The position numbers were made by a program, and so were the translations under genes. A stretch of DNA of 63,995 bases, counting the filler, from Ionaspis alba (Eukaryota), in assembly GCA_964255285.1 (NCBI GenBank). It is 3 parts of 3 records of this genome, joined end to end, with 100 filler letters (N's around TTAATTAATTAA, not from the genome) between each part and the next. Parts side by side here need not be neighbours in the genome. Positions count along the whole stretch, not along the records: positions 45,155 to 63,995 come from CAXUUL010000278.1; 2 more parts are not named here. The stretch is one strand, 5' to 3'. Below are positions 22,487 through 63,995 of the stretch, one piece after another. Position 1 is the stretch's first letter; each line of letters starts with the position of its first letter. The notes beneath the pieces were generated by a model. That model worked only from the letters and a program-made list of their open reading frames with translations. It had not been told where the DNA came from and searched no databases.

Positions 22487-22586
22487 NNNNNNNNNNNNNN
22501 NNNNNNNNNNNNNNNNNNNNNNNNNNNNNNTTAATTAATTAANNNNNNNNNNNNNNNNNNNNNNNNNNNNNNNNNNNNNNNNNNNN
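22487..22586. other. Assembly gap containing artificial six-frame stop linker TTAATTAATTAA (22531-22542)
   Basis: N-run / TTAATTAATTAA / N-run, 100 nt in total, identical in layout to 45055-45154. Confidence 0.95.
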
Positions 22587-45054: not shown

Positions 45055-45154
45055 NNNNNNNNNNNNNNNNNNNNNNNNNNNNNNNNNNNNNNNNNNNNTT
45101 AATTAATTAANNNNNNNNNNNNNNNNNNNNNNNNNNNNNNNNNNNNNNNNNNNN
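45055..45154. other. Assembly gap containing artificial six-frame stop linker TTAATTAATTAA (45099-45110)
   Basis: Same N/linker/N layout as 22487-22586. Confidence 0.95.
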
Positions 45155-46073
45155 TGGGGTATGATGAAATAAGCTGGTGGCAGATGTTCAGCTTCCTCGT
45201 CGACGTCAATGTGTTATATTCCATATGGCTGTTCGAATCTGCTCGGACTAATTCTCGCACAGCTATAAGTTTGTTCGTGTTCCCCCTCCTCCTTACATGA
45301 ATCCTGTCTAAGGCAGTCTTCATAGTCCGATGATCTGGGGATTTTCAGCACAAGTGCTCGGCATCGGCTTGGTCGCTCCTATCTACTGCTTTGTCCACTA
45401 CGTCTTTATGCCGACTCCGCTCAACAGGAGCTCAGGACCCTTTCTTACCGACCGGACACTTTCTCTCACCATCGTCCCAGTGGTGTTCCTGTTCTCTAGC
45501 ATCCCAATATACTTGGCCTACCTAGCGCCAACACCCGCTACACGCCATTACTGGGTTTGGGCCTGGCAGATGTTCCCGTTATGGATCAGTATCAACCAGG
45601 TCTTGCTGCAACAAACAGTCATGAGAATTGCAGACAGAGAAGCTGGCAATGATGGTGGTAAGCCAGCTCGTGATCTCCTCATTAAGCGTCTCACTCTGGG
45701 TTTCTTTGCTGCCCAGGGAGCTGTGGTATGGATCTACCTACTGTTTCGATCTCCTTTCACCCTCTCTACCATCTTCCTTCCCCAAATTGCGTTCGAGGTC
45801 GATTTTGTCCCTGCAATGCGCCGCTGCCTGCAGTATGATGAGATTTTCGGATTCGGCAGCTATTTCCTGTGGCTGGGATACTTGTTTTTGGACCTCAAAC
45901 GCGTGAAGCTGCTCAGTCAGAGCTGGCTCGTTATTGTGGGTTCAGCAGTTTTGGGTACAGCATGCTTTGGACCAGGGGCCATGCTTGCACTGGGTTGGCT
46001 GTGGAGAGAGGAAAATCTAGTGAATGTGGATCGTAGAGCAGCACTTATCGAGAAGAGAAGGAAAAATAAGTAG
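45155..46073 (+). CDS. 5'-truncated integral membrane protein, PaxA/AtmA/CtvD-like (possibly the C-terminal half of an FAD-monooxygenase fusion)
   Basis: Exon fragment SWWQMFSFLVDVNVLYSIWLFESAR, then AQVLGIGLVAPIY, WVWAWQMFPLW, LQYDEI and FGPGAMLALGWLWREE. It begins at the contig edge, and the family call is from motif recall. Confidence 0.65.
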
Positions 46074-47403
46074 AGTAGGCAGGACTGGTATCACAGGATG
46101 AGGAGTAGGGCACGAGACGTCCGGGCAAGGAAAGGGGAAAGGCCCATTCATGTGAAGTCGAGTTCCGCCTGTTGGAGTCTCGCTCGGGATGATTCTCCGG
46201 ATTACATGCACAACCTGTTGCGGATGCAAAGCACGGCGTGTGGGGCTTCTCTGCGGCGCACAACCCTATCATGTCCTTCTCAGCTTTCGACAAGATCAAA
46301 GCCTCTTGGTTCGAGGAGCTGAAAGACAAGAAACTGAACATACGGCTAGGCTCATTCGATGGGCAGTAACCCCGTTCCACATGTGACCTTGATACGTGCT
46401 GCAAGGCAGACCACTACTGACACTCCCTCTTCCGTACCTGGCATCATGTGCGCATCGGGGCAGAATAACCATAAGTTGAACCCAGAAAATAAGGATGGTG
46501 GTGCCTTACTCCTGATGATCGGTGTAAGCGAAGAATGTGGGAGGGCTTGCCGTGCCCCTGTTTCATCATGCCATTTCCTGACTAGCTCCTGCAACGTCTT
46601 GGCGGAGCCTCAACCCACGACGATACTGCAACCCTTGAACGCTACCAGAACCTGCGGAACGAGATTCGTCGGAGAAAAGTTGTGTGTATCGGAGGTTCTA
46701 CAGGAAGAGGATTCATTCCTCTCCAACAGAACATACGAAGCAGAGAAAAAGGATAGTTCATCCCAATTGGAAGCGGTTCATCCCATCTCAGTCAAGACCG
46801 AAATCCTCAACATGCTAATTGGTGCTGCTGAATCTCGAGCCGCATACACTGCCCCTTCTATTGAAGCTTCCAAACCTTCTGTCTCATACGCCGCCTTCAT
46901 AGTCTTTTTACGGTGTCTTTGATTGCTTGCAACAGGCCTTTTTTAGCGAAAACCGCCGTCCAATCTGCCTGATCTCCGATTTTCGAACATGGTATCCCAT
47001 GTGCACATGCTAGGACCCAGCATTGTCCTGATTCACTCTCACAATGGTGTACTAGATGATCTTCACCGCGTTACATTAGTAGTGGAGAAGGTCAAGGGTC
47101 CATTCCTACTGGTACCACAGCCGACGCGGTCTTCCGCCTACAATGGTACCTCTGCAGGGTGATAGGTGTGGACGAAGACCTCGTCCCGCACTTACTCCGA
47201 AACCTGCCAAGCTATGTTCTGTATATTAGCTCTGACTTCGTTCTTGATTCAAGTCTATAATGACTTGAGAGCATCCATTCTTTATTCTTCATTGCAATTG
47301 CCTGCTATACACTCGTTCCTAGCTACGGCTCCAGCAGGATATTTATTAGTGCAGTATCACACTCTTTATCTTTTCATTGGCAAATTTCACTCGCATCATA
47401 GCT

Positions 47404-49744
47404 ATGTTCTTGAATACGGCTCTCTTCTGGAGCTTGACATTGGTTTGGGCATTGCTTAGTACTCCTGCATTTGGCGGTCCTGTACATGCCCAGCCACATG
47501 TCAAGATTGTTGAGTCTCGTGATGTTCCCAATAATCGTGTGCTTACAGCAGTGCGAGGAACCCTGGCGAAAAGAGTCCAGGATACAAGTGAAGCGTTTGT
47601 GCTGAAGTCAGCGTTGACTCTGGACTATGCAGACAGTATGTGTCCCCGCTTCTCGTGATTAAGTGGCCGAAGCTTCCCTATTATGGATTGTTTGGCCCAT
47701 AATTTGAATCTGCTGACGATTATGATTGCCACAGAAGAGTCCCTGGAGGGTGCTGAGCCTTTCGGTGCCTCAATGCTGGTTGAAACGAAGCATCCAGCAC
47801 TAGTTCTGGAAGACATCGATAGCTATCTGACATCCATTCAATGCTCCCGATCTGGTATCTCGCTTGGCTTCCAATCAAGCCAGCAGTCTATCGCAGCTGA
47901 GAAGGCCTGGAATACATCGGATTTCCTAGTTTTCACCTCTCATCGGGGCTGCAATAAAAACGGCGAACGGCAGCCATATCTGTAAGTAATGTCATGAAGT
48001 TCTTGTCTCACTCCTTGCAGCCCCAAAATCTTGCTGACTATTCAGGGTCTCTGCTGTCTCGTTTGATCATAAATTAGCCTCTGCTACCCTGACGGCTCAG
48101 CCTGTTGGTTGGGAAATGACATATGTTACCCTCGAGGTCAAGTTTGGTGTTCAAAAACCTATCCGAAATCCAAACACGGAGCGCTCCGTTTCGACTTCTG
48201 CTCTCTCGAAGCGAGCGTCGAAAGACATCAGCTTCTCCCTAATCAACAAGCAGCTCATCAGACTGTACGTCGTCCCTCTTGCATATATTCGTCTAGGGAG
48301 TATTAACTTTGGTCAAGCACTGTACCGGGGACAGTAATCACATCAACTTGCAAGACTTGCACAGGAACCGGCACGTTTACTATTCAAAGCGGTGGCTTCA
48401 AGATGCACAATTCTGGAGGCTTCTTCGGAGGCATTCTGGGCGGACTCAAAGATATCAGCCACATCGCAGAATTTGCTTTTGTGGACATAGTCGCAAACAA
48501 CCTTCGTGCAAGTTTCGACATAGAAACAACAATTCAATTCCAAAAGGTTTTCACTTTTCATTTACTTGGCGGTCCAGTTGGTCTGCCGGGTTTCTCTGTA
48601 TGTCATACTCTCGTCAGCATTCAATTGCATGTGGCTAAGCACATCATATAGATCGCCGGTGTCTTTTCCATCGGTCCATCGATTGACCCTACTATTGTCG
48701 CAGCGATTAAATTGGCCGAGCCACTCACCTTCGACCTTGGTTTCGACATGGCCGTTCCCGATGGAGCTAGCCTCAATATCGACATCGTAAACGTCGCGAG
48801 ATCGTCGGCATCAGGATTGTGCGTATTTACCGGGCTATCTAGGAATTCGTTGTCCCCCCTTGCTAATGATAGCTAGTGATGCTACGAAGTTCACCGAACA
48901 TCCACTACAACTTGAAAGCAAGATCGGCTTGAACTTCAGTCTGGCTTTCCGACCTGTCATAGAATTTGGTATATCTGTTTTCAAATTCGACTTCGATCCA
49001 ATCCAGGTATTTGCCGACGTACCAAAATACGACGGAAGTCTGGTGCTCGTCTCCGGCGTAGACGACAATTGTAACCCGTCTCCAGCCAGCACCGGCCAGC
49101 ACCTATCATATAATGGTGACTTCAGCTTCGACATTGGCGTTGGCGCAAAAATCGACCTTACCGACAAGATTGCCTTCGCTCCCCAGCATGTCATTGCTAG
49201 TACCAAAGTCTTCCCAGCGTCCACTTGCTTCGCAATCGGTCCCAAGGCAACGCCGGTTGCCATCGTGTCGACTCCAGCTGCCGTTGTAACTAAGGAGTCG
49301 GTGTCAGCCCTAGACCCCACTACGAGTGCTGCCGGCGTGACTACGGCCGCAGTCCCAGAGACAACTGCTGTCTCAAACTCCACCGTTCCTTCATCTTCTC
49401 GATTCACCCTCAAACACCGCAAGTCTACAGCTACCGTGGGTCCTCTCTCGACTGCCTTGCCTAGTGGTGGGCTCACCACTACCACTGTGGTATTGTCGCG
49501 TCTCACCACGTATCCCGTGACAATCACTCAGATCTCTAACTCATCAGCCTATACTACGACAGTAGAAACCACCTCCGCTATTGTCTTTACTAGAACAATG
49601 ACGTATTGCGCTACTTGTGCTGCCCCAACAGCGACCGGTTCTGGGGACGGTCCGTGGTTGAATGGTACCGCTGATGGTTCTGCTCCGCCAACAGCCGCCA
49701 TCCCTCGCCTTCGTCGTCGGCTGGGAAATTTTCGATTGATTTGA
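47404..49744 (+). CDS. Secreted fungal protein (DUF7029/DUF7223-like beta-rich domains, Ser/Thr-rich tail), multi-exon
   Basis: Signal peptide MFLNTALFWSLTLVWALL, then LTLDYAD, PALVLEDID, AEKAWN...FTSHRGCNKNGERQPY, a CTG...CKTCTGTG segment, GLPGFS|IAGVFSIGP, and a Thr-rich C-terminus. Confidence 0.7.
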
Positions 49745-50413
49745 GATGCTACATTCGCTCCTTCCGTGGTGCCTGCGCTCATCTCGGGATATGAAACCGG
49801 GACTGACGACTCTCTTTACATATCTCCGGGTTAGCGTGACTTGATAATGAATTAATGGGTATTTGGCAGGACTTTTGTGTTACTGAAGCATTTAGATATT
49901 AGGAAGCACAATCTATTTACCATATCCAGTCTCCGCATCCTCTGTCAGAGACTCCAGTAGGTGTGAAAGAGAGCGCTTGAATGTATTCACGAGATCCTTA
50001 TAATGCGACACCACCCTCAAATGTAACCGTAGGATAGTGAGGATTTGCAAAGAACGTTTCATAATTCTAGTTTGAGGTCTAGGGATTTGCAGCTCATATA
50101 GCTCTTGTGAGGACGATCAGTCCGCAGAGACCTGGTCGAATAGTCATGTGGTGGACCAAGATACTTTAACTCCACGCTGAGGTGATGCACGGCGCAGCCA
50201 AGGGTTTTGCACGGCGTTGCAGTTTAGGGGTTACCGACTTGGCGAGGCTGAGCCCGCGGCCGCCTAAGCCGAATGGCGTAGTTCATGCTGACTGTGGATT
50301 TAACGGCGCAATACCGATGACTTGCAGCGCTGACTATCAGAAAAGATACGCAGCTCATATACGCTGCAGTCCTCATATCGAGGAGACACATACATGCCAG
50401 GACTTTATCGACC

Positions 50414-52005
50414 ATGTCTCAGACGCATCCTCCACACACAGATTCGATAGAGGAGAGGGAATCGAATGAAACGGAGAAGAAAGTGAAGAGCAGGAGACCA
50501 GCAAGTATGCTCGCCGTTATTGGGATAGGGCCTCAGGTCTGGAAGCACCAGGAGACTGATAGACATTTTCTCTACGTTAGACACTGCATTCCGACAGCAG
50601 CGACTGAAAGCATGGCAGTAAGCCTGTCCAGTGCGAAATCGTAGCGAGCTTCACTGATGTGATCTGCAGACCCATCCTTACTCCCAAAACCGTACTCCCT
50701 CTGTTCTTCATCATTGGGGTCATCTTTGCACCGATAGGTGGACTCCTACTTTATGCCAGCGCGAAAGTCAGCAGTCCTTGACAATCCCCCAAAAGAAGGA
50801 AACCGTGGGCAAACGGCCTGGGCTTTGCAGGCTGACAGCTATCTCAGGTCCAAGAGATCTCAATAGACTATTCGGAGTGTGCCTCTCGAGCACCGCAATC
50901 AGATGACATGTCCAAATTCGCGGAAATACCGAAGGACAAGTACTACTCATACTTCAAAAATGACATCAATCCTGGCGAATACCCAACCTGGAAGCAAAAC
51001 ACAACCGACATCACGTATAGCAAAGGGCATCCAGCTCCTCCAGATACCAAGGGTGGTGTTAAGGTCTCGACCACCATTTGCTCTATCCAATTTACGATAC
51101 CGGACGATCTCGACCCTCCAGTCCTTTTCTACTATCGCTTGACAAACTTCTACCAGAACCATCGGAGATATGTCAAATCGCTCGATACGGATCAATTGGC
51201 GGGAACAGCCATTACGCAAGGGAGCTGTGATCCTCTGCGTAACACCAGCGATGGCACGCCGTACTACCCATGCGGGCTCATTGCCAATTCGTGGTTCAAT
51301 GACACATTCGTTTCTCCCGTAGGATTGAACATTGCTAATTCCACCGATCCCGTCATGTACAGCATGACAGATAAAGGGATCGCATGGGATAGCGACAAGA
51401 AACTCTACAAGAAGACTGCTTATAAGCCAAACCAGATTGCCGTGCCACGAAACTGGCAGGTCAGATGGGGAGAGAAGGGATACACAGATGATAATCCTCC
51501 CCCTGCTTTGGACGAAGACGAAACGTTTCAAGTTTGGATGCGGACTGCTGGCCTCCCAGCATTTAGTAAATTAGCTCTGAGGAACGATACCCATACCATG
51601 CAGTCAGGCAGGTACATGGTGGATATTCGCATGAGTACGGGACTTTCCCCATTTCACGCTTGGCGCATTTATTGACAACGAGCAGACTTTCCAGTGACCG
51701 AGTACGGAGGTACGAAATCGATCGTGATTTCAACCCGAACCGTTATGGGAGGTAGAAACCCTTTCCTTGGTATCGCCTACGTTGTGGTATCAGGGCTCTG
51801 TGTTATTCTTGGAATTGTTTTCACCATAGCCCATCTCATCAAGCCTAGGTGAGTCTCGTCAGGTCCGAACGACGGTCCCACGTGGCGTGCTAACAAAGGT
51901 TCTTACAGGAAACTGGGCGACCATACCTACTTGACGTGGAATAACGACCAGCCTAGCACTGCGACCGCAACCGGCATTTCTAGACCTGGACATGATACAG
52001 CGTGA
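50414..52005 (+). CDS. CDC50/LEM3 family phospholipid flippase beta subunit, spliced
   Basis: [71 protein letters not shown] and [12 protein letters not shown]. Confidence 0.95.
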
Positions 52006-52648
52006 TTAGAACCTCTTTCTCTTTACGCGCAGGCGTTTCTGGTGGCGGGATGATAGGGCGTCTGGATGACTTTTGCGTTGGTCTTTGTCCGTCGAATTTA
52101 TGCTTGGAACTGCGAATCTGTTTCGCAATACAGCTAGCGCACTGACACCATGCTTTACGGACGAGATAATCATCTTGCCAATTTCTTCTTATTTGCTACC
52201 GTGATTCAGGTTCTTAGTATCGCCAGTCGCTGATCGAGCAGGAATAAGCTGGGGGCGGTCCAGAGGCTTTATGGCTGCTGGGGCTGGCTGGCTGAGGCTT
52301 GAAATCGCCGTTTGCGGTCATGTCCAACGGGTTCGAGGTGGCCCACCAAATACCCAGCCCGACAAGCACATCTGGGTCATGAACTAGATGGCTGACACTT
52401 TGTTGACGCGGTGTAGAGAATACGTGCTGATCTTTTGTAGTTGTTTGATGCTTCAACTTTGTCTGGCACCAAACGAGGGTTTTCGTGTCGATCACCAGTC
52501 TTTTCATGATGTCTATAAATCTTTCAATCATCCCGAGCATGTCTATCGACATTCAGAGAGATCTGAATAACTTTCCTAGTCTTTCAAGAAGATCTTCTCA
52601 CTTACCAAATCGATATCAATCTCTGTCGATCTCACTCATCACTGCAAC

Positions 52649-53675
52649 ATGTGGTTTCCTATCTCCTTTCTCGTTTTGGGAGCTGCTGCCCTCCCGACGT
52701 CTCTAACATCTCCAAAGGATCTTCCCAAAGTCAATGCAACTGTCCTCCCTACCGGCACTGGCCCTAGCACAAATCTTACCGATGTTCCCTCACGCCATTG
52801 CGGAACCGGGCCACCATCAATTCATCTGGTCGAAGCACATCGATCCCTGCGCGCCGATGCTCTTCACAAACGGGCGATCAACAACAACAGGAAGTACACG
52901 GTGAACACCTACTTCCATGTTATCACAAGCACGGCCAAGTCCAAAGCCATCACCCCTTCTATGATCTCCAACCAATTCGGTGTCCTGCAACAGGCTTATG
53001 CTGCCTCCTCCATCAATTTCCGCCTCCTCGGCACCACAAACACCATCAACGATACCTGGGCCAAGGATGGCGCTGACGCCGACATGAAATCAGCTCTCCG
53101 CCGCGGCAACTACTCCACCTTAAACATCTACTTCCAATCCGATCTCAGCAACATCGCCGCAGGCCAGTCATCCCAGCTGCTGGGCTACTGCACGCTGCCC
53201 ACAAATGTCACCTACGTGCCCTGCTCCACCTGCGCGCCTCGCGAGTACCCAGCGCAGGACTACGTCATGGACGGCTGCAACATACATGCCGGGACCATGC
53301 CAGCGGGTTCGCTCAATGGTTACAACTTAGGCAAGACCGCCGTTCACGAGGTCGGGCATTGGTTTGGCCTGTTGCATACTTTCCAGGACAACACGTGCAA
53401 CAAGGGTGATGCGGGCGATTTCATCGATGATACGCCTCAGCAGAGCGTGCAGACGGATGGGTGCCCGGCGAAGAAGGATAGTTGTCCCGGACTACCGGGT
53501 TTGGATCCGATACATAATTATATGGATTATAGTACTGATAAGTGGTAAGTATCTGTCTCCTATACACTTTTATCTACGAGATCGATGCTTATACGGTTGC
53601 AGCTATGAGAACTTCACCGGCGGTCAGGTGCAGAGGATGCAGAATATGTTCCAGACGTTGCGATTTGGCTATTAA
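52649..53675 (+). CDS. Secreted zinc metalloprotease, family M43 (pappalysin/ulilysin-like, Mep1 type), 2 exons
   Basis: Signal peptide, propeptide CGT cysteine switch, KR maturation site (LHKR-AINN), zinc motif HEVGHWFGLLH and Met-turn HNYMDYS. Intron at about 53545-53601. Confidence 0.95.
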
Positions 53676-54635
53676 GGGAAAGGGTGACATTGTGCATATG
53701 AGTATCAGGCTAGACTGTAATATGACCGGGGGCCGCGAATGTAATCAATTTCTTTTCTCGGCGGGACCTCGATGCATAGTGTGACCGAGAAGTGCGCGGC
53801 CTGGGGAAGTGCATTGGTCGGGTAGGGAGAGTCTTTGTCTTTCTGGGCTGGAAATAGATATCGGGATTGGATAGACTGGTCAAAGGTTTCAAATAGCAAA
53901 GGTCTTCTTTATTGATTCGTGAAGAGGACGTGTGATTTGACTGACTCGCGTCTCCCTTTGGCTGCATGTTCGTGGGTGCTTGCTGATGACTCTAAGGCGT
54001 AAGGTATGCGTATTCCTTCATCGTCAGGACTTTGTCGAGTGAGAAGTGCTTGCATAAGTGGTTTGCTCTACGCACTTGAAGGCCAATGACCAGCCAGGTG
54101 ACTGTCATGTTGCTAAAGATAGTGAAAGAAGCATTCGCCACTCTCTGCCACCGCTCCTTTATTACGATGTGCTTGGAATTAATACCTTGAAACGGCACTC
54201 TGGCCACCGTTAGCTCTTTGTCGCGCGAGGCATTCCGCGGTGCTGATCCGACGAGTTAATCTCTATGATTGGGAAGCGCATGTCTCGTGCGTTCCTCGTG
54301 CGTATGTGGTTGCTAAGCAATCAATTCTCACATGCTGTGAATTAGGATCTTTTTTGATCATGGGGTGATGGCTATAAGGCTATGTTGAATAAACAATTAC
54401 GATTGACGTTCAGCCAGTAGCGGGGACGAAGAGTTCCACTTAGCATTCAGGAAAAGTCATCAAATGTGAGCCAGGAATGATGAACTTATATGGATTGATA
54501 TACTTCCATTCTAGCCAACTCCCCCGAACATTACCATTTGCCAAAACCTACTTTTATTGACATTGTGCTTCCCACGTATATCATACACGGTTATGAGAAG
54601 TATTCAAGAATCCTCAGTTCAAAAAACGATTTCCT

Positions 54636-56920
54636 TCAAAATGCTCTTGCATATACCGCAACGGTATTTGAGGTATATATTCCGCACTCCCCCGTTCCGG
54701 AATTGCACAGCGCACAATTGTTGTCGGGAGCCTGCCCATTCATTAAAGTGGTGATAGTGACGTAATTGAGTGAGCTTCCGCAATAGCAATCCCCTGCTGT
54801 CGTGCCATTGTTGACCGTACCGAAAAATGTTGTGCCTAGTGCAAGACAAGCGGCGGAGCACTGGGCGTTGACGCTCCCCGTGTATGTGGCTTGGAAATTT
54901 GAAAGTACTTTGCCAGTAAGTATCGTGGGTAGACCTATACCCAAACCCGTTAGTATGTGACAAGACGATTGCCAGCTGGAACAATTTTACCGGTCTGATA
55001 GAAGCAACCTGAGACAAAAGTAGTTAGCAAATCGTAAGGGCTGAGCTCCTGCAGGGAGGGATTAAATACCGAGGTATGAATACGTGATGCCAGCTAAAGT
55101 TATAAATCAGCACATTAAACAGGCCTCACTCTCAGATCAACACTTACTAGGACCTCGGGGGCCCGTGGCGCCTGGTGATGCTTGTCAGAAACTCGACGTG
55201 GCAAGCCAATGAAGGGACGACTCACCTGTCAAACCAGTAGGTCCTATTGGACCGGTAGGGCCGATCGGTCCAGTCGGCCCATCTGCTCCTGCTGGTCCTG
55301 CTGGTCCTGCCACACCTGTTGCACCGGGTAACCCACTTAGTCCGCTCACGCCAGTCGGTCCAGTCGGTCCGATCTGCCCCGATATACCGCTTATTCCAGT
55401 AGGCCCAGCCACCCCTTGCGGTCCTGTGGGACCCGTAGGTCCTGCCACACCGTTCAAGCCACTCAAACCGCTGATACCCTGTGGCCCCTGAGGCCCAGTC
55501 AACCCTTGTGGTCCTGTTGCACCTGTAGGACCTGCGACGCCGTTCAAGCCACTCAAACCACTGATACCCTGGGGTCCCTGAGGGCCAGTCAATCCTTGCG
55601 GTCCCGTAGCTCCNNNNNNNNNNNNNNNNNNNNNNNNNNNNNNNNNNNNNNNNNNNNNNNNNNNNNNNNNNNNNNNNNNNNNNNNNNNNNNNNNNNNNNN
55701 NNNNNNNNNNNNNCACTGATACCCTGGGGTCCCTGAGGGCCAGTCAATCCTTGCGGTCCCGTAGCTCCTGTGGCACCTGCTAAACCACTTAAACCACTCA
55801 AACCACTGATACCCTGGGGTCCTTGGGGGCCGGTCAACCCTTGCGGTCCCGTAGCACCTGTCGGGCCCGCTACTCCATTCAAGCCGCTGAGACCACTAAA
55901 ACCTTGAGGTCCTTGAGGCCCGGTCAGTCCTTGGGGTCCTGTAGCTCCCGTAGGGCCTGCTGCACCATTTAAGCCGCTCAGACCGCTAACTCCCTGAGGT
56001 CCTTGAGGCCCAGTCAGTCCTTGGGGTCCCGTAGCTCCCGTAGGACCTGCTACGCCAGTCAAGCCACTTAAGCCGCTCACACCCTGAGCGCCTTGAGGTC
56101 CTACGGCCCCAGTGGGTCCTATGGGGCCAGTGGGTCCTGTAGGCCCTGATGGGCCGGGAGGGCCGTTTGGAGCAATGTTTGATGCGCATACGAGGTTTAG
56201 ATCACTGACATAGAGATCAACAAAGACACACCCGACAGGGTTACCGCCCAGAGAAAAGACTGCGACCAAGGTGTTATCGCTCATTACGCAGAACAGCGCA
56301 TTGCCGTTAAAGAAGTTGGGGTTGACCCATTGGAGAACACCGTTCCGTCCGAGCGAGAAACTTTGCGTTATGGCTAATGGAAGCGAATGTGGTTGTAAGA
56401 TGGTGAAGTTGACATTGTTGGGAGCTGAGTATTGCAAGACAGTGCCGTTGCTCAATAGCCAGAAGAACTCCCCGTTCACTATGGCATAAGTCCCAGCATC
56501 GGCACAAGATGATGTTATTCTGTTGTGAATACCAAGATAACTGATTTTTGTCTGCCGACGATTATTTCTTTTCCGCGGATCCTTGACAGTCAAAACGAAA
56601 GGAGCACCACTGGCAATTGCGGTTGGTCTTGTTGCTGATAGAGACACGGTTTTGATGCTCGAAATCTTGGAGGTATACGTTGTAGTGAGGTCTATACTTG
56701 TCGGCGCGTTCCTAACGGTTATGGTGAGTTGGGGGTTGACTTCGAAGGTCGTATTCGATAGAACGTTTGTGTTAATAGCCACAGTATTTTCATAGACAAG
56801 AACCTTGGTAATTACTCGAGAACATCCTCCAATGGTATGGGTACTGGTCCACGCCAAACCCGGAGCAGCGAGACCAAGAAAGCAGAGGAGGTCGAAGTAT
56901 AACAACGAACGGAGCAGCAT
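54636..56920 (-). CDS. Secreted collagen-like protein: signal peptide, N-terminal beta-rich domain (DUF7908-like), about 90 Gly-X-Y triplets, C-terminal WSC domain
   Basis: Signal peptide [24 protein letters not shown] and an uninterrupted G-X-Y tract at about 56163-55148. Small 3' exons splice to YLGCFYQT|GLP...CSAAC...FFG...CYCG...C..C...CG...AVY*, matching the WSC pattern. Confidence 0.85.
55226..56163 (-). repeat. Coding tandem repeat, 90-nt / 30-aa collagen unit ([30 protein letters not shown])
   Basis: About five near-complete copies plus degenerate flanking triplets, interrupted by gap 55614-55713. Confidence 0.9.
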
Positions 56921-57615
56921 ATCGAGAAGGACTCGCAGAAAGACACTGGAAAGCAGCAGAATAGAAATGCAGAACGCTGGAGCGCAGCAAAACAAATGCA
57001 GAGCGACACATGAGAACATCAATAGTCCAACGCAAACGTGTATAGCAGAAGACGCAAGCAGGGAATCGAGTGGATATAGCGATGTATTGCTCAGAACAGC
57101 ATAAGGAATTTACTGGAATTCGTGATTTATGCATGGATGCATTCCAGCAGGGAGATGATCAACAAACTACTGTGACACGAAAGATTAATGTGTCCTTCAA
57201 AGAGATGCTTCGATGTCTGAAGGATCATAGACAGCTACCAGGAGCTTGTAGACGTATACTTAAGATGATGTTCCACAGTATATAGTTCGATTCGAGGCGC
57301 ATGGTGGGTGTATTGGTAACCTTTGCATTTCCTTCCCTGGCCATGGATGACCATGTGGCGGGCACATGCAGAAAGTACAGTCTCATTAGATCCATATCCT
57401 AGAACGATCACCAACCATGACCAACCATAAGAAGATGAGGTAGTGGATGTGCGCGAACACGGACATCATTACAAAACGTTTGCAGGTCGAGCCTACTTGC
57501 AAGGCTGGAAGCTCTAAGCGAGTGCCGAGGTACAGTGATGGAGGGATCAGTCTAAAATGCCAACCTCTTCCTCGACAAGTACCAACCCATAGAAGTGTCG
57601 CATTCTCCCAGCACC

Positions 57616-58935
57616 ATGGCGGAGCTATATAAGCAAGCGTGCTCTCATATACCGGATAAGATTACTTTACCCGCGACCTGGTTACATGCCTATGAAGAAT
57701 TTATCTCTAAGAACTCGAGCTCAGTCTCGCAGATAGAGTCCGCTTTACGGTCCCTTACATATATCATACCAGGTACGAGCTGGAACTGGTGTTATGATGA
57801 AACGGTAGAACTGACAGTGGGACCAGGACGGTATCGCGAATCCGAAATTGCCTCCGAGTCTCGTCCGTGCTATCCTTTCTGTATTCTATTCCCCCTACTA
57901 ACATAATTCAAGTCTACTCTGGCGTCCAGCTACTTGCCCTCTACCATGATTCCCTCCTTGCAAAAACCATCTCTCGCCTCCCCTCTTCTATCCCACGCCC
58001 GACACCTACGCTCCACAATCGATATACAAAATTCTGGGCGGCTAAATCCTTAGTCTATAAGCGGGTCGCGTTACTGCTACAAACCATCCAATATACCGAG
58101 CTATTATGGGAGATGGCGGCAAAGAGAAAGGGGGAAAAGATCCGTTGGCGTGTAGTCGTGATCCTGGAGATGATCAAAGCAGTGTGCCGAATGCTGCTGA
58201 TGCGCCTCACAAACTCGAGACCATTAGTCAATCCTCCCTTGCCTGAAAGGGAGGTCGATCCTCGGATAGCTGAGGAAGAAGCGCCAGAGAAGTCGCAATG
58301 GAATGGCATGCAGACGCCCCCGATAAGCGAGAGTGGCTCTGAGTTGAGCTGGACTATGCCTCGGACGGGATTGAGCCTACCTACATTACCGGACTCGAGC
58401 GAGATCACCGAATATCTATTGAAAAAGGTCCTGACGGCAGACGATATCAAAGCTCCAAAGCAGCTTCTGCACCGAATGACCACCAATCAAGGACAAATAG
58501 CGGAACTTATGTGGATCACGAGACCAGTAATCTATGCCTTAGCTATGCAAAGGTGGCAGGGGAACAAAAAGAGCTGGAGTCCATGGCTGATAGGCATTAG
58601 TCTTGAACTTGCAGCAAGACAGTTGGCCAAGAAGGATTTGGCTGAACGTGTAGCTGGTGGGTTGAAGGGGCTCACTGGATTGGAGAGGGAGGAGCTCAAG
58701 AAAAGGGGATGGAGCATGGCCTGGTGGACCATGCGAGGAGCCTTTTACGAGAATATTACAAGGTAGGTCATGAAAAGCCTTTTGAGATATCCAGGCACTA
58801 ATACTTCTTAGGAGTTGGATTCAAGCAGTCACCGGAAAGCTCAAGGGAAAACTGCTCCTTGACATGGTTGGGACAATTATCGAAGATTACGATTATCTGT
58901 GGGACGAATACCATTTCTCAACAGCAACTATGTAG
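57616..58935 (+). CDS. PEX16: Peroxisomal membrane protein Pex16, spliced
   Basis: YEEFISKNSSSVSQIESALRSLTYIIPG|RYRESEIASE, TIQYTELLWEMAAKRKGEKIRWRVVVILE and LEREELKKR...RGAFYE...DYLWDEYHFSTATM*. Confidence 0.93.
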
Positions 58936-59330
58936 GGACCTCAAGATGCAAGGGCCTTGGCTTTGATCAATGGCGTTGGGTAATGGTCATGCAAGAATAC
59001 CCTTGGGATCTTTTTGTTGGAAATTCCAGTTGATTTGTCTATATTGTGTATCAATAGATTTTGCGTGCCAGACGACCGAAGCGGATTCAGCCGTGGTTGC
59101 TTCCTACTCGATGTGAAGAACAGTTGGGATTCTCTGCTATGAAACTCGTTTAGCTCAGTAACCCAACTACTGTTTGCATGCTTCAGTTACTGCCCGGTTT
59201 GTGTTACATCAACAGCTTGAGTTCCTGCATCTCCCCCACGTGATTGAGGTAGGCTCATGACCAGCAATGCTGTGGCTTGTTTGAGCATCCTACTTAACGT
59301 GCTCTTGAGTAGCAGAGAGAGCTCAGAGTG

Positions 59331-60557
59331 TCAAAAGACAGCTTCTGCAACAGGCCTCCCAAACCAATTCGCTAGATCATTCGACTCCTCTTCCGTACCT
59401 CCCATTCCTCCTGAAACAAAAAAGTCTGTGACCCGCATCGACTGTTCCTCATCGTCTCCTCTAGGCCAGTCAACCTTGGTAACGCCTCCTTTGCTCTCCA
59501 GGAGGTCTTTCGCCGTGCCCCAGCTGAACCGACATTCGCTTCCCCAACCAAAAAGTGGTTCCATGTTGTTTTTCAGCCATGAAGTGCATCGACCGTCTGA
59601 AGGATACCCGGAGCCCCATCCGTCGGCGGCATCTGCTGGTCCTTCGGCGTTTGGAGAAACACAAGACTTATAACAGACTTCCAAGGCTGCATCTCTGGTG
59701 ACTTTAGCGCAGACCGATGCCGCTGACACACAGGGATAGAGGGAATCGGCCTTCTTGGCGACTGTGATCATCGTGGTTGGAAACATCCTCTCAATCTTCT
59801 TCTGGTATGTCGCAGGATTTCCAATGGTATCAATATATATCTCTTTCACATTCACGCCTTTGGCAAACACTTCTTTGATGAGCTCAATCGTGGCATCCAT
59901 TGCTTGAGCATTGAGATTGTATGATCCAACCGGTTTTAGCATACCCGCAGATATATCCCGTGCCGACATCACTCTCGTGGCCCATCCACAGATCTGATAC
60001 AAATCTGTACCGGGTGCGCACAGCTTCTCCATCAGTGACGATCGCACTGCAGGAGTGAGGACTTTGGAATCGTCGAAATGGTGTATATCTACCAGTAATA
60101 CTCGATGTACTAGCAGGGGAAGATAGAAGAGGCCGTAGACCATGGGACCTTTTGGAAACAATGTTACTACCGAGCTTGTAAACGAGGAAGAGAGAAACTA
60201 CCGAGGACAGGTCCCCTTCCAGCTTCATCAATCCCGAGAACACATTCCGTAGTCAGTTTCTCTGTCATAATCTTTGGTATAGGGGAATGATAGGTGTAGG
60301 ATCTGCCTAGTAAAATCTCTTTCTCATTTNNNNNNNNNNNNNNNNNNNNNNNNNNNNNNNNNNNNNNNNNNNNNNNNNNNNNNNNNNNNNNNNNNNNNNN
60401 NNNNNNNNNNNNNNNNNNNNNNNNNNNNNTGATAGGTGTAGGATCTGCCTAGTAAAATCTCTTTCTCATTTATTGATGGAGCGATGAAGACATCCTTCAC
60501 TGGTGTCTCCTGAGCAACTTCCGGGGATTCGAGGTTTTCCATAGTAGAAATTTTCAT
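59331..60557 (-). CDS. RNH201: Ribonuclease H2 catalytic subunit A, spliced (spans an assembly gap)
   Basis: CVLGIDEAGRGPVL|GPMVYG, FDDSKVLT, YNLNAQA, IYIDTIG, KKADSLYPCVSAASVCAKVTRD and WGSGYPSD. Confidence 0.95.
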
Positions 60558-60659
60558 CTAGTCATGTAACTGTCGACCTCGCACTAGTACTCAACAATCC
60601 GAAAGATGCGAGTCGAATACTGAACTATCGACACATCCAATGTCTCTACTCAGCCGAGG

Positions 60660-60788
60660 ACGCGTTGAGGGAGACGCGCCTGCCAAGAAAATTGTCGTTA
60701 GCGTGATCTCCGCTCATCTAGCGTTGTTTTGATATCTCATCCTCGCTTGCGTCTGGATTATTGAGGGCATCAGGTTTTGTCGACGCGT
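60660..60788. promoter_or_regulatory. MCB (MluI cell-cycle box) elements in the RNH201/MIF2 bidirectional promoter
   Basis: ACGCGT at 60660-60665 and 60783-60788, plus an ACGCG core at 60674-60678. Confidence 0.55.
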
Positions 60789-60889
60789 AGGCCAATCCTA
60801 ACGGCAAAGGTTCCCTCTTCTCATCTACGAGCCATTGAGCTCTTCTATGAATTACGATACTACGCAGAGATATACAATAAACAGTCTCT

Positions 60890-63337
60890 ATGGCACCTTC
60901 ACGAACGCCGGGGCGCAGTAAGCGCGAACCGGATTATTCAAAGGTCGGAGTGGAAGGAAGGTTAGCATAAGCAAAGAACAGCGACGAGAGTCTATCGCAA
61001 GGTATGCTGATGTGTATTAGAAAAACCGGTGTGACCCTTAGAGATACTGGCATTCGCGACGAGCATGGTCTGGAGCCTATTGATGGCATCTTCTCGTCAC
61101 CTGAAAAGTCGCCGTTCAAGCGCAACGGCACTGCTCATGAGTCTACGATCGAGGAGGAGGAAGACATGGATATAGGACAAAGTACGCTCAGTAGCGACAA
61201 AAGTGAACCAAGAGCTCCTATCTGACCCTGCTCCAGGCACCATCCCAGAGCCTACTGAGGTGTTAAGTGCTCGACGAAATGGCAAACCAATATTACCACC
61301 TCCGCACGCCCGATCTCCTATCAAAACTGCCTTGAACTCATCACCGCGACGATCGGTCGGGCCGACATCGTCTCCAGCACGACGTAGCAGTAGTGACACA
61401 CCAAGTCGCGCAATGTCGCATCCGCTCCTCGGTCGAAAGCTCGACTTCTCGACAGGAGAGCCTAGCCAAAGTATAGAGCATTCGCCACGCAAAGCTCGAT
61501 CTTCTGCTTCTCCGTCGCCTGCAGTGAAGAGCGGCAAGCTTAAGCGAAAGGCAGTACAAGGCAAAGAACGAGTATTCGATCTGTCTCTCGAGGAAGATGA
61601 AGAAGAAGGGGAATTGGAACAAAGCGAGGAAATCACAGCAGACACGCTCGGAGCTGGACGTGGCGAGGATTTTGAAGAGGATGGTGTTTTCTATGATGCT
61701 TCGGCGCCTCCGATGGATGACGACGAGTCGCTACATATCAACGGCAACGAGATCTCAGAGGTAGAGGATGAGACTCAAGAGGCGTCTGATCTGGTTCCTC
61801 GAAATACGAAAGCCCAGCCAAAGGGTAAACGTGGGCGAAAACCCAAGGCGGGAGCCTCGAAGCTACAGGAGGTTGAGCCATCAGTCATTGAGGATGACCC
61901 GATTCCTCCACCCAAAGCCATGAAGCGTGCTGGGAGACCCAAGAAGACCGTGCATGTCGAGGAGGAACAACCCCATGCTACGGACGAGCAGCCGCAGCAC
62001 GCTAAAGGCAAACCGGGAAGGAAAGCGAAGCAAGAAGTGTTCCGAGATATAGAAGAGGAAGTAGAGACGGGATCTCCCAGAGGATCGAAAAGACAAAGGC
62101 TCGAATCGGTGGAAGCGACTCCCGTCGAAGCCAAGAAGAAAGGGCCAAAACCGAAAACAAGACCGCCTCCATCGGAAAGAGATCCTAACGCAAAGATCGT
62201 TGCAGCGAAGCGGAGAGACAAAGCACCATCTGCTGAATCTGCAAAAAAGTTCGCTCGACCTAGATCACGAGGTCTGACGATCTCACGGAGTGGCACACCA
62301 GCGGAGGACGATGGCGCCAGGGTGCTCAAATCAGGCCGTACGTCTGTGAAACCCATAGCGTTTTGGCGGAACGAGCGCATCGTCTACGGAGATTCAAATT
62401 TGGATGGCAAAGATCTGATATTACCGGGTATCGAGGAGATCATTCGGACGGAGGAGATCATTGTTCCAAGGCCTAAGCAGGCGTATAGGAGACACGGTTC
62501 TAAGTCCAACACTCGCCCACTAGCAGAAGTCGAGGAGGAGGACGAAGATCAGGAGGAGTGGGAGATCGACCCTGGATATCTACGTTCCGAGGTCATGCAA
62601 TGGGACCCGGAGTTGGAAAGGGGTATTGACGAGGATCCTGAAGAAATTGGTGCGCATACAGTCAGATTGTCCTCTTCGCTCCTTCATACTGATATAGATA
62701 ATAGAGGTGGCTCTTGCACCGCTCTGCCTGGAAAGGCTCTTCCGCGAAGTCAAGGGTTCCGAGTTCAAATACGCCAAAACGGTCACTCTACCTTTCTTCC
62801 ATTCGGGAATGGTTGATCTTCCGCCCGGAGGCGAGAAGAAGACCAAGAATTCGAGGAAGAATCATATGGTTTTCATGGTTTTCTCAGGTCGGGTTCAGGT
62901 CAAAGTCGCAGATACAACTTTCAGTATTGGGAGAGGAGGCATGTGGCAGGTTCCTCGAGGTATGTCGGACTTTCTATCATTGTGCGCGAATTTCTCTATT
63001 ACGTTCTCCATCTTTCTTGTCCTGCCCAGTCCATAGTGCACAAGACATACATCCCCGTTGACTAGCCGGAAACGGTTACTCGGCTCGTCACAGTATACGG
63101 GGGCTCCAGGGAAATGCTGTGTAACCCTCGGCGGAAGAACTTCTTGCCGTGCTCTGCTTCCTTTCTTCTATTTGCCGCGTCCACTTTTAGCGAGACGCCA
63201 CTGATCTTCTTGCCACAGGGAATCTCTACAGCATCGCCAATGTCCACACGCGTGCTTCACGCATCTTCTTTGCTCAAGGTTGCTTTATGACCCCAGAAGA
63301 CGTCGAAGAGGAAACTATACCACCTGGAACCGAATAG
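60890..63337 (+). CDS. MIF2: Inner kinetochore protein Mif2/CENP-C, spliced
   Basis: N-terminal VGVEGR|KTGVTLRDTGIRDEHGLEPIDGIFSSP, CENP-C motif SGRTSVKPIAFWRNERIVY, and cupin GMVDLPPGGEKKTKNSRKNHMVF...WQVPR|GNLYSIAN...RIFFAQG. The last intron is 62960-63218. Confidence 0.93.
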
Positions 63338-63995
63338 TTGGACAGGTCAAACCATGCTTGGTTTCACATTTCGAGAAGGTTGTGGGAAAGGCTCTCAATC
63401 GATACTTGCGACAATCGGCGTCCGGATGGCTGCTAGGGAAAGGCGTTAGACTGGGCGGAATAGTAGCTAAGGAAAAACAGAAGCGCTTACGGTTGGGATG
63501 AATTTGCGTCATCTTCACAGGATAGCTTTGTGCTTGATTGCGAATGGAAGTAATCAGCTTCCGAATTTAACGCTTCTGCTTTATAGCCACCCCCAATACA
63601 TTGTTCTAGCATTAAAAACCCACGTTCTTGCAGACCTATTTCATCACAATAGCACGAAAAACTTCTGGCTGGGTATTTGTTTATGCAATGGATATAACAT
63701 CTACATCTTCTTTCGAAGAATCCTCTACTCTCACAACCTTCCACTCCTCAAACAACTAACCCGAGATCTCCCTTCCAGCTCTCATTCACCACCTACCTAC
63801 CCACTCTCACCCCGAAAAACAAAATGGCCTTCAACCATGTAAAACTTCCACCAGCTGCGTCCTAAGACCGAAACGCAAGCCATGTGCCAGAGCCAGCTGG
63901 AACCAACCCACTACACCTCAACATTACAAAGAGCTGATAAGCTCGCACTTGCGGATCCCACAAGCCAACCAACCTCATCGCCCACCCCTTTTCCC

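Follow-up and report, generated by a model that had tools for sequence, protein, structure and literature searches.

A stretch of 63,995 nucleotides (nt) from the genome of Ionaspis alba (GenBank assembly GCA_964255285.1; hereafter the window, in which three parts of three records are joined and positions 45,155 to 63,995 come from CAXUUL010000278.1) contains, on its minus strand at 56920-54636, what the sequence supports as a single gene for a protein of secreted type in which a long perfect collagen tract is joined to a C-terminal domain of WSC type. Translation places the ATG at position 56920, and the product would be one secreted chain of at least 634 residues that consists of a signal peptide, a hairpin module, a beta-trefoil, at least 91 Gly-X-Y triplets and the WSC-type domain. 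The function proposed here, which we regard as about evenly balanced between right and wrong, is that of a two-headed bridge between polysaccharides, or of an adhesin, secreted as a trimer and located in the wall or the extracellular matrix.

The predicted gene has five exons. Exon 1 runs from 56920 down to 55226, contains a 100-N gap and ends at its 3′ end in a GT donor. It is followed on the minus strand by exon 2 (55148..55171, 24 nt), which carries the final collagen triplets in an in-frame splice model, exon 3 (55070..55093, 24 nt), which completes the helix and begins the first strand of the WSC-like domain, exon 4 (54991..55008, 18 nt), which carries the first conserved Cys of that domain, and exon 5 (54636..54934), which contains the remaining seven Cys of the domain and a TGA stop codon (54638-54636). 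A preliminary description of the locus, made from the sequence, had placed the three small exons at 55148-55171, about 55069-55093 and about 54992-55009, within 1 nt of the present model. The introns measure 54, 54, 61 and 56 nt, all four have GT..AG ends, and each has a CTRAY motif 17-19 nt upstream of its acceptor. In the splice model the spliced stretch is 753 nt and the frame is kept; the unspliced reading meets a stop codon immediately past exon 1. As the open frame of exon 5 has no Met ahead of the WSC-like domain, it is not easily read as a separate gene. The residues encoded by exons 3 and 4 are kept in relatives, and the Gly-Cys-aromatic start of the domain in exon 4 is a conserved feature that the family shares with bona fide WSC domains. 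The closest relative, P0005 (494 residues, 71% identity over the N-terminal region), shows an identical helix-to-domain junction with its parts in the same order, and DUF7908 and Collagen are present in every one of the ten proteins in which the C-terminal domain was found. By these sequence comparisons the domain appears to be fused to the collagen tract, as initially claimed, rather than to belong to a separate transcript. One relative's database model reads through an intron exactly where an intron is placed in the window gene. A consensus match to AATAAA lies 78 nt past the stop (54553..54558, minus strand), and a tblastn search within the window found no second copy of the gene.

The 100-N scaffold gap (55614..55713) lies within the collagen repeat, and the 55 nt that precede it are identical to the 55 nt that follow it, an exact overlap corresponding to six duplicated triplets; the early count of 50 triplets on one side and 47 on the other, six of them duplicated, is exact. 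At the gap edge, an 11-nt overhang of a contig from one sequencing run (X1) matches the continuation on the far side. If the two edges simply overlap, the tract would have 91 triplets and the gene an in-frame 634 codons plus stop. Contigs of run X1 fragment at the gap and none bridges it; additional collapsed 90-nt units may lie inside, and about 90 triplets is a minimum. The same difficulty is seen in relatives, for which some database models are broken at the repeat: P0011/P0172 and P0012/P0173 are each an N-terminal half and a C-terminal domain, and the two halves of each pair sit on contigs of equal size (the sizes being 120958 and 15889), as expected if one gene is broken by its own repeat. 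The collagen repeat evidently disrupts assembly or gene calling, so that database counts of the architecture are underestimates. Among the contigs of another run (X2), one of 22 kb, from a different organism, matches the gene only at 55283-55303 and 56736-56777; between these matches it has 2148 letters compared with 1432 in the window, and it is probably a relative's copy with a longer middle.

The collagen tract consists of part A (55715..56164, minus strand), with 50 uninterrupted Gly-X-Y triplets at residues 253-402, and part B (55226..55613, minus strand), which is the rest of exon 1 up to the GT donor; together with exons 2 and 3, the sequence after the gap gives 47 further uninterrupted triplets. 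Pfam Collagen (PF01391) is matched at 85.0 bits by part A and 79.3 bits by part B, well over the cut-off of 27.2. At the DNA level the tract is a tandem repeat with a period of 90 nt (4.3 copies with 81% matches before the gap, 2.3 copies with 86% matches after it). Over the 97 triplets, the X position is occupied by Pro (44), Leu (22), Ala (13), Val (9) and Ile (7), and the Y position by Thr (34), Gln (21), Ser (19), Ala (10) and Pro (2), in agreement with the scarcity of Y-position Pro noted at the outset; only 2 residues are charged. The same style of helix is found in 20 relatives, whose tracts of 38-114 triplets have Gly at every third place, Pro at 24-65% of X positions, Thr, Ser or Gln at 48-88% of Y positions, Pro at 0-15% of Y positions and 0-5 charged residues. 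The tract is a single unbroken run in 15 of the 20 (16 if two short outlying runs of P0117 are ignored). That so strict a period is maintained over 38-114 triplets in relatives from four classes is an argument for selection on a triple helix and not on a loose spacer.

The chemistry of this helix can be compared with that of collagen-like proteins outside the eukaryotes. Thr triplets are reported to be over-frequent in bacterial, archaeal and viral collagen-like proteins and not in eukaryotic ones, and (Gly-Pro-Thr)10 to be a random coil unless its Thr is galactosylated; glycosylated Thr can stand in for hydroxyproline as a stabiliser of the triple helix, and bacterial collagens without hydroxyproline otherwise rely on salt bridges (PMC11923368). 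Judged by its sequence, the Thr-rich composition is unusual for a eukaryotic collagen-like protein. Few charges, scarce Y-position Pro and Thr, Gln or Ser at about three quarters of Y positions point to a dependence on X-position Pro and O-glycosylation, and the stability of the helix most likely comes from X-position Pro together with O-glycosylation of Thr and Ser in the secretory pathway.

The C-terminal domain has eight Cys, all kept in the family and with WSC-like spacing; a conserved set of Cys marks WSC domains (bioRxiv 10.1101/2025.11.24.690177). Sixteen of 17 family members match Pfam WSC (PF01822) at an E-value (E) of 0.1 or lower, the best at 1.6e-5, and UniRef names three members 'WSC domain-containing protein'. 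When a profile of the C-terminal domain (alignment A5, trimmed) was compared by hhalign with three bona fide WSC domains, taken from P0131 (two domains, 96 bits) and P0125 (50.7 bits), a match with a probability of 92.5% and a score of 41.2 over 62 columns was obtained, the maxima in 40 column-shuffled WSC controls being a probability of 3.0% and a score of 18.2. The aligned part spans the first five Cys, and the last three follow at WSC-like spacing. These comparisons support the C-terminal domain as a divergent relative of WSC, by homology and without membership of the Pfam family. The four exons from which a WSC domain was proposed to be built are in frame in the splice model, and the domain is recognised by remote homology while lying below the Pfam cut-off. 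In relatives the WSC-like head starts 0-5 residues past the last triplet, and in the window protein directly after it. The last 15 residues have a mean hydropathy of 0.53 and a hydrophobic tail is absent; as first described, neither a transmembrane segment nor a glycosylphosphatidylinositol (GPI) signal is apparent in the sequence of the C-terminus. A search of the ESM Atlas with the C-terminal domain gave no usable match.

The N-terminal half begins with the start codon and a hydrophobic stretch resembling a signal peptide (56849..56920, minus strand; about residues 1-24, from translation and hydropathy), in which 11-residue Kyte-Doolittle means peak at 2.09 (residues 5-15); orthologues begin at an equal distance from the first conserved block, and the stretch is in line with the signal peptide of the preliminary description. 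Residues 25-103 (56612..56848, minus strand) form a conserved beta-hairpin module with an invariant N-T-T sequon, for which nothing significant was found in Pfam and, using residues 25-116 as query, no usable match in the ESM Atlas. DUF7908 (PF25485) follows at residues 104-239 (56204..56611, minus strand) and is matched with an E of 2.9e-25 and 89.5 bits against a gathering cut-off of 27, so that two of the three families suggested for checking, Collagen and DUF7908, are found above threshold.

An AlphaFold2 model of residues 24-251 has a mean predicted local distance difference test (pLDDT) score of 84.1, with 135 of 228 residues at 90 or higher. Model residues 11-70, corresponding to the hairpin module, are long beta-hairpins with pLDDT of about 90, and model residues of about 73-225 superpose on solved beta-trefoils. 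In a comparison with 48,161 representative chains using VIA-align, the best match was 3win_A (Z 9.8, root-mean-square deviation (rmsd) 3.1 Å, 128 residues), and 165 chains matched at Z of at least 2, 147 at 5 or more and 37 at 8 or more; in a second structural comparison, against Foldseek's top 991 chains, 97 reached Z of at least 8. The top rows include entries with the titles beta-trefoil lectin, ricin B-like lectin and beta-trefoil protease inhibitor, and many of the others we take to be trefoils as well. Plain Foldseek with the N-terminal model gave no match at E<=1e-3, and its weak top matches (E about 3e-3, rmsd 27 Å) were to the pore former lysenin; a lysenin-like pore former was rejected as the second comparison aligns solely lysenin's trefoil (residues 158-297). 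For the trefoil assignment, more weight is given to how uniform the list of matches is and to the fact that they cover the entire domain than to the score itself. On the model, DUF7908 can confidently be predicted to be a beta-trefoil, and a domain of unknown function thereby gains a predicted fold.

The preliminary description had listed an N-terminal region of about 250 residues with internal KR and RR sites. Its position and sites are as described (KR 117-118, RR 121-122, first triplet at residue 253), and with DUF7908 modelled as a trefoil head the region is more than a leader. The basic KR..RR stretch (56555..56572, minus strand; residues 117-122) follows the first matched strand in a block (91-100) with a lower-confidence pLDDT of 74. 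Arg121 is invariant in alignments A1 and A4, the latter made from 50 relatives of the N-terminal half, and the adjacent Gln is present in at least 90% of A4. In the model, KR..RR appears to be a loop within the trefoil and not a border between a pro-piece and the domain, possibly serving as a Kex2-type nick site or as a functional loop. The Cys reported just before the helix is Cys245 (56186..56188, minus strand), 8 residues ahead of the first triplet. It has an equivalent in 122 of 134 aligned DUF7908 members (80 without nearby collagen, 42 with), these being all aligning proteins gathered in the analysis and no random sample. As the Cys is kept with or without collagen, it belongs to the DUF7908 domain; a role as a collagen-specific interchain disulfide knot was rejected.

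A profile of the N-terminal half, searched against 1.84 billion sequences, found 717 representatives at E<=1e-3, 249 at <=1e-10 and 60 at <=1e-30. Among 146 of the best 150 representatives, Pfam found DUF7908 in 138 and Collagen in 18 (E<=1e-3), GLEYA in 3, of which two also have PA14, and WSC in 4 (P0125 and P0131 above threshold, and two below threshold that lie after collagen). Eight of the 146 had no Pfam match, and at least six of these match the hairpin module alone. DUF7908 also occurs in tandem copies among relatives. In P0093, P0130 and P0134, DUF7908 is joined to a C-terminal GLEYA instead of collagen and WSC, with PA14 in addition in P0093 and P0130, the proteins from the plant pathogens Septoria linicola and Cercospora zeina. 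By direct counting, 26 of the best 150 have at least six triplets and 17 at least ten, and six have the C-terminal domain according to the family profile. These 150 have a median length of only 249 residues, and in a further 20 models the chain stops within a short Gly-X-Y run or right behind it; truncation at the repeat thus hides many cases.

The full three-part protein was found in Cladonia, Stereocaulon, Pycnora, Friedmanniomyces and further assemblies. The trefoil with collagen is present in Xylographa (Lecanoromycetes), Pycnora (Candelariomycetes), Sarea (Sareomycetes) and Friedmanniomyces and Elasticomyces (Dothideomycetes, Teratosphaeriaceae), and also in Cladonia, Stereocaulon, Lasallia and Oleoguttula. 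Cladonia, Stereocaulon and Lasallia are lichen fungi, grouped here with Xylographa, Oleoguttula is placed with the Dothideomycetes, and the hosts of the architecture overall are lichen-forming or rock- or resin-dwelling fungi. One metagenome scan gave a single locus (L001, 2163 nt), which ends soon past the trefoil. In a DUF7908 tree made by a quick method (136 rows, 141 columns) the collagen labels were faulty, two members with Pfam-confirmed collagen having been labelled as lacking it, and many models were truncated, so the tree was not used for the origin of the fusion. In databases, automatic annotation calls the members hypothetical proteins, DUF7908 proteins or WSC proteins.

Fungi rarely have long perfect collagen helices, and Metarhizium Mcl1, which is GPI-linked and has a Cys-rich N-terminal domain, was the only fungal collagen example in the literature searched. 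Like the window protein, Mcl1 is a secreted fungal protein of the cell surface with a central Gly-X-Y domain (PMC4546252), but the window protein, compared with it by description only, has no GPI-type tail and carries DUF7908 and a WSC-like domain. Bacillus BclA and other Thr-rich collagens of prokaryotes and viruses likewise have Gly-Pro-Thr triplets without hydroxyproline sites, a C-terminal globular domain and a probable dependence on Thr glycosylation (PMC11923368), whereas the window protein is eukaryotic, is encoded by an intron-bearing gene and has other end domains. An eight-Cys WSC-type domain on a long stalk is also the design of Serendipita indica WSC lectins and of Wsc sensors (PMC9252488, bioRxiv 10.1101/2025.11.24.690177); compared with Wsc sensors, the stalk here is collagen, the domain is C-terminal and sub-threshold, and there is neither a transmembrane segment nor a cytoplasmic tail. 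The predicted trefoil matches the fungal lectins CNL, MPL, SSA, RSA and PSL and mycocypin inhibitors (Z 7.8-9.5 over 115-132 residues), though at 4-12% identity and within a secreted multidomain protein. Fungal trefoil lectins and mycocypins are small and mostly cytoplasmic.

The preliminary description had likened the architecture to that of collectins and ficolins. Animal collectins, ficolins and the C1q family do combine a collagen tract with a C-terminal globular domain of recognition type, are secreted and lack a membrane anchor, and a trivalent head on a rigid stalk would be expected here as well. However, no C-type lectin, fibrinogen or C1q Pfam domain was found in the window protein or P0005, the coiled-coil neck of collectins is absent from the window protein and the relatives examined, a second (trefoil) head is N-terminal, and the helix is far longer (at least 91 triplets), nearly charge-free and not of Pro-Hyp type. 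With no neck and no C-type lectin or fibrinogen domain, the likeness is one of analogy and not homology. No paper on DUF7908 was found, nor any description of the architecture in a literature search on collagen triple helices in lichen-forming fungi; the main text of the lichen genomics papers examined, including bioRxiv 10.1101/2024.08.16.608140, mentions neither collagen nor WSC, and their supplements might list the gene. The two-headed collagen architecture is new to the literature found, and it resembles known collagen-stalked lectins.

The neighbours of the collagen gene are ordinary fungal genes (CDC50, M43 peptidase, Pex16, RNase HII and Mif2). At 52580-53548 on the plus strand, a frame whose start is hydrophobic matches Peptidase_M43 weakly (E 8.6e-9) and probably encodes a secreted metalloprotease. 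At 48791-49744, also on the plus strand, lies an open frame of 317 codons that matches no Pfam family and whose second half is rich in Thr, Ser and Ala; from its sequence it is possibly another wall or secreted protein. Two further tracts of the window, at 22487-22586 and 45055-45154, each consist of two 44-N runs 12 bases apart, unlike the 100-N scaffold gaps elsewhere.

In the proposed two-headed bridge, three chains would assemble into a triple-helical rod of roughly 80 nm, estimated from the rise per residue of a collagen helix, with the three trefoils at its N-terminal end and the three WSC-like heads at its C-terminal end. Fungal glucan of the wall or matrix would be bound by the WSC-like heads, and the trefoils would grip a different glycan, whether on the matrix, on an adjacent hypha or on a partner cell, so that the multivalent spacer would act as a cross-linker or glue of the matrix. 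What the sequence work establishes is the anatomy of the gene, the homologies of its domains, a predicted trefoil fold and an architecture kept in relatives; that the gene is spliced as modelled and that the protein trimerises, is glycosylated, binds ligands and lies where proposed are all points that we infer. DUF7908 is repeatedly joined to sugar-binding heads within its family, and its partners (collagen, WSC and GLEYA/PA14) point to cell-surface adhesion. In the literature, Serendipita indica secretes beta-glucan-binding lectins with WSC domains, for which its soluble beta-glucan matrix is enriched (PMC9252488), Wsc sensors hold a WSC head on a long Ser/Thr-rich stalk inside the wall (bioRxiv 10.1101/2025.11.24.690177), and in Xanthoria parietina ricin-B-like lectins are over-represented among thallus-upregulated genes and have been proposed to act in symbiont recognition (bioRxiv 10.1101/2024.08.16.608140).

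Several results weigh against this two-headed bridge. The weakest link in the step to a trimer is a helix with neither hydroxyproline sites nor salt bridges: as charged residues and Y-position Pro number only 2 each over the 97 triplets, and given the coil formed by unglycosylated (Gly-Pro-Thr)10, its stability is uncertain. At the C-terminus, exon 5 alone scores 16.3 bits with PF01822, under the cut-off of 27.8, so that the Pfam assignment first suggested for this domain failed, and every family member scored is sub-threshold as well, at 16.3-23.6 bits (P0005 at 21.2, P0172 at 23.6 and two others at 22.4 and 19.9 bits). The family hidden Markov model in turn matches bona fide WSC sequences weakly (9.0 and 3.2 bits), an AlphaFold model of the P0172 C-terminal domain made from 17 sequences had a mean pLDDT of 43.4 and was discarded, and a sequence-profile search of the PDB returned no WSC chain and only a chance-level match (E 0.07). 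At the N-terminus, Z of 8-10 is moderately above the best background Z of 7-8 stated for the aligner; the trefoil fold is shared by protease inhibitors, cytokines and a fungal effector and hence is no proof of a lectin, and no Ricin-type Pfam family was found in the N-terminal part at E<=1, where DUF7908 and Collagen were the only families. The splice structure is predicted from the sequence and from relatives whose proteins are likewise gene predictions, and contigs from two sequencing runs, being DNA, cross the predicted introns unspliced. Ligand, location and oligomeric state of the protein are reached by inference.

Four other readings were weighed against the two-headed bridge. The protein could form a surface coat similar to that of Mcl1, with the WSC-like head on the fungus's own wall glucan and the glycosylated rods as a hydrophilic nap that hides wall polymers or spaces surfaces. 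The uncharged Thr/Ser-rich tract fits such a nap, a WSC-type head could attach non-covalently to the wall (PMC9252488, bioRxiv 10.1101/2025.11.24.690177), and Mcl1 is said to envelop hyphae and to camouflage beta-glucan (PMC4546252). We nevertheless consider a masking coat unlikely, as a GPI-type hydrophobic C-terminus is absent and as the conserved, well-folded distal trefoil, together with the WSC and GLEYA fusions of relatives, argues that the distal end binds too. It is similarly doubtful that the Gly-X-Y tract is a flexible O-glycosylated spacer in a monomer, comparable to the Ser/Thr-rich stalks of wall proteins. The near absence of charges and of Y-position Pro, the random coil formed by unglycosylated (Gly-Pro-Thr)10 (PMC11923368) and the fast shifts in tract length between relatives (46-114 triplets) would all be in keeping with a spacer, yet a spacer needs no strict period, and Gly is found at every third place over 38-114 triplets, as one continuous run in 15 of the 20 relatives, which span four fungal classes, with X-position Pro at 24-65% and Pfam Collagen scores far over threshold.

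A different division of labour would make the trefoil the active part, as a protease inhibitor or toxin-like effector, with collagen and the WSC-like domain only tethering or displaying it on the wall. Its structural neighbours include macrocypin, clitocypin and cocaprin (Z 8.1-9.5) and the secreted effector MoErs1 (Z 8.6), and Pfam detected no ricin-type sequence family; but lectins match at equal Z, so that a fold search cannot separate these functions, and the pairing of DUF7908 with sugar-binding heads and its tandem copies are more adhesin-like, and we consider an inhibitor or effector quite unlikely. Finally, the gene model itself could be wrong, with the collagen protein ending past exon 1 and the C-terminal domain separate or untranscribed. 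Mini-exons of 24 and 18 nt are easily mis-called, the exon joins are predictions, and several relatives' database models are split or read through an intron. Such an error is very improbable in view of an exon 5 frame without a start codon ahead of the domain, four introns with canonical ends, fungal-type lengths, branch motifs and a kept frame, mini-exon residues that are conserved and provide what a WSC domain requires at its start, the first strand and first Cys, and split halves on equal-sized contigs as expected of one gene broken by its repeat.

A more far-reaching version of the two-headed bridge, which we think unlikely in its entirety, is that lichen and rock fungi make a counterpart of collectins: a trimeric rod of roughly 80-100 nm with three trefoil lectin heads and three WSC heads that would rivet their own glucan matrix to a second glycan, possibly that of the photobiont wall, and so build the gel of the thallus or a rock biofilm, its Thr-rich helix being held by O-mannosylation as a eukaryotic case of the sugar-stabilised collagen of bacteria, viruses and a vent worm. 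Lichen and rock fungi need a thick extracellular matrix as well as contact with a photosynthetic partner, and to our knowledge almost no such glue or recognition molecule is known in lichens. The three-part design is shared by ascomycetes of at least four classes, which are exposed on rock, bark and resin and many of which are lichenised. If true, the sugar-stabilised helix would offer a eukaryotic test case for a collagen stabilised without hydroxyproline or salt bridges, and if the rod is real and both of its ends bind sugars, the protein would be a simple candidate, open to testing, for a molecule that glues lichens structurally or serves them in recognition.

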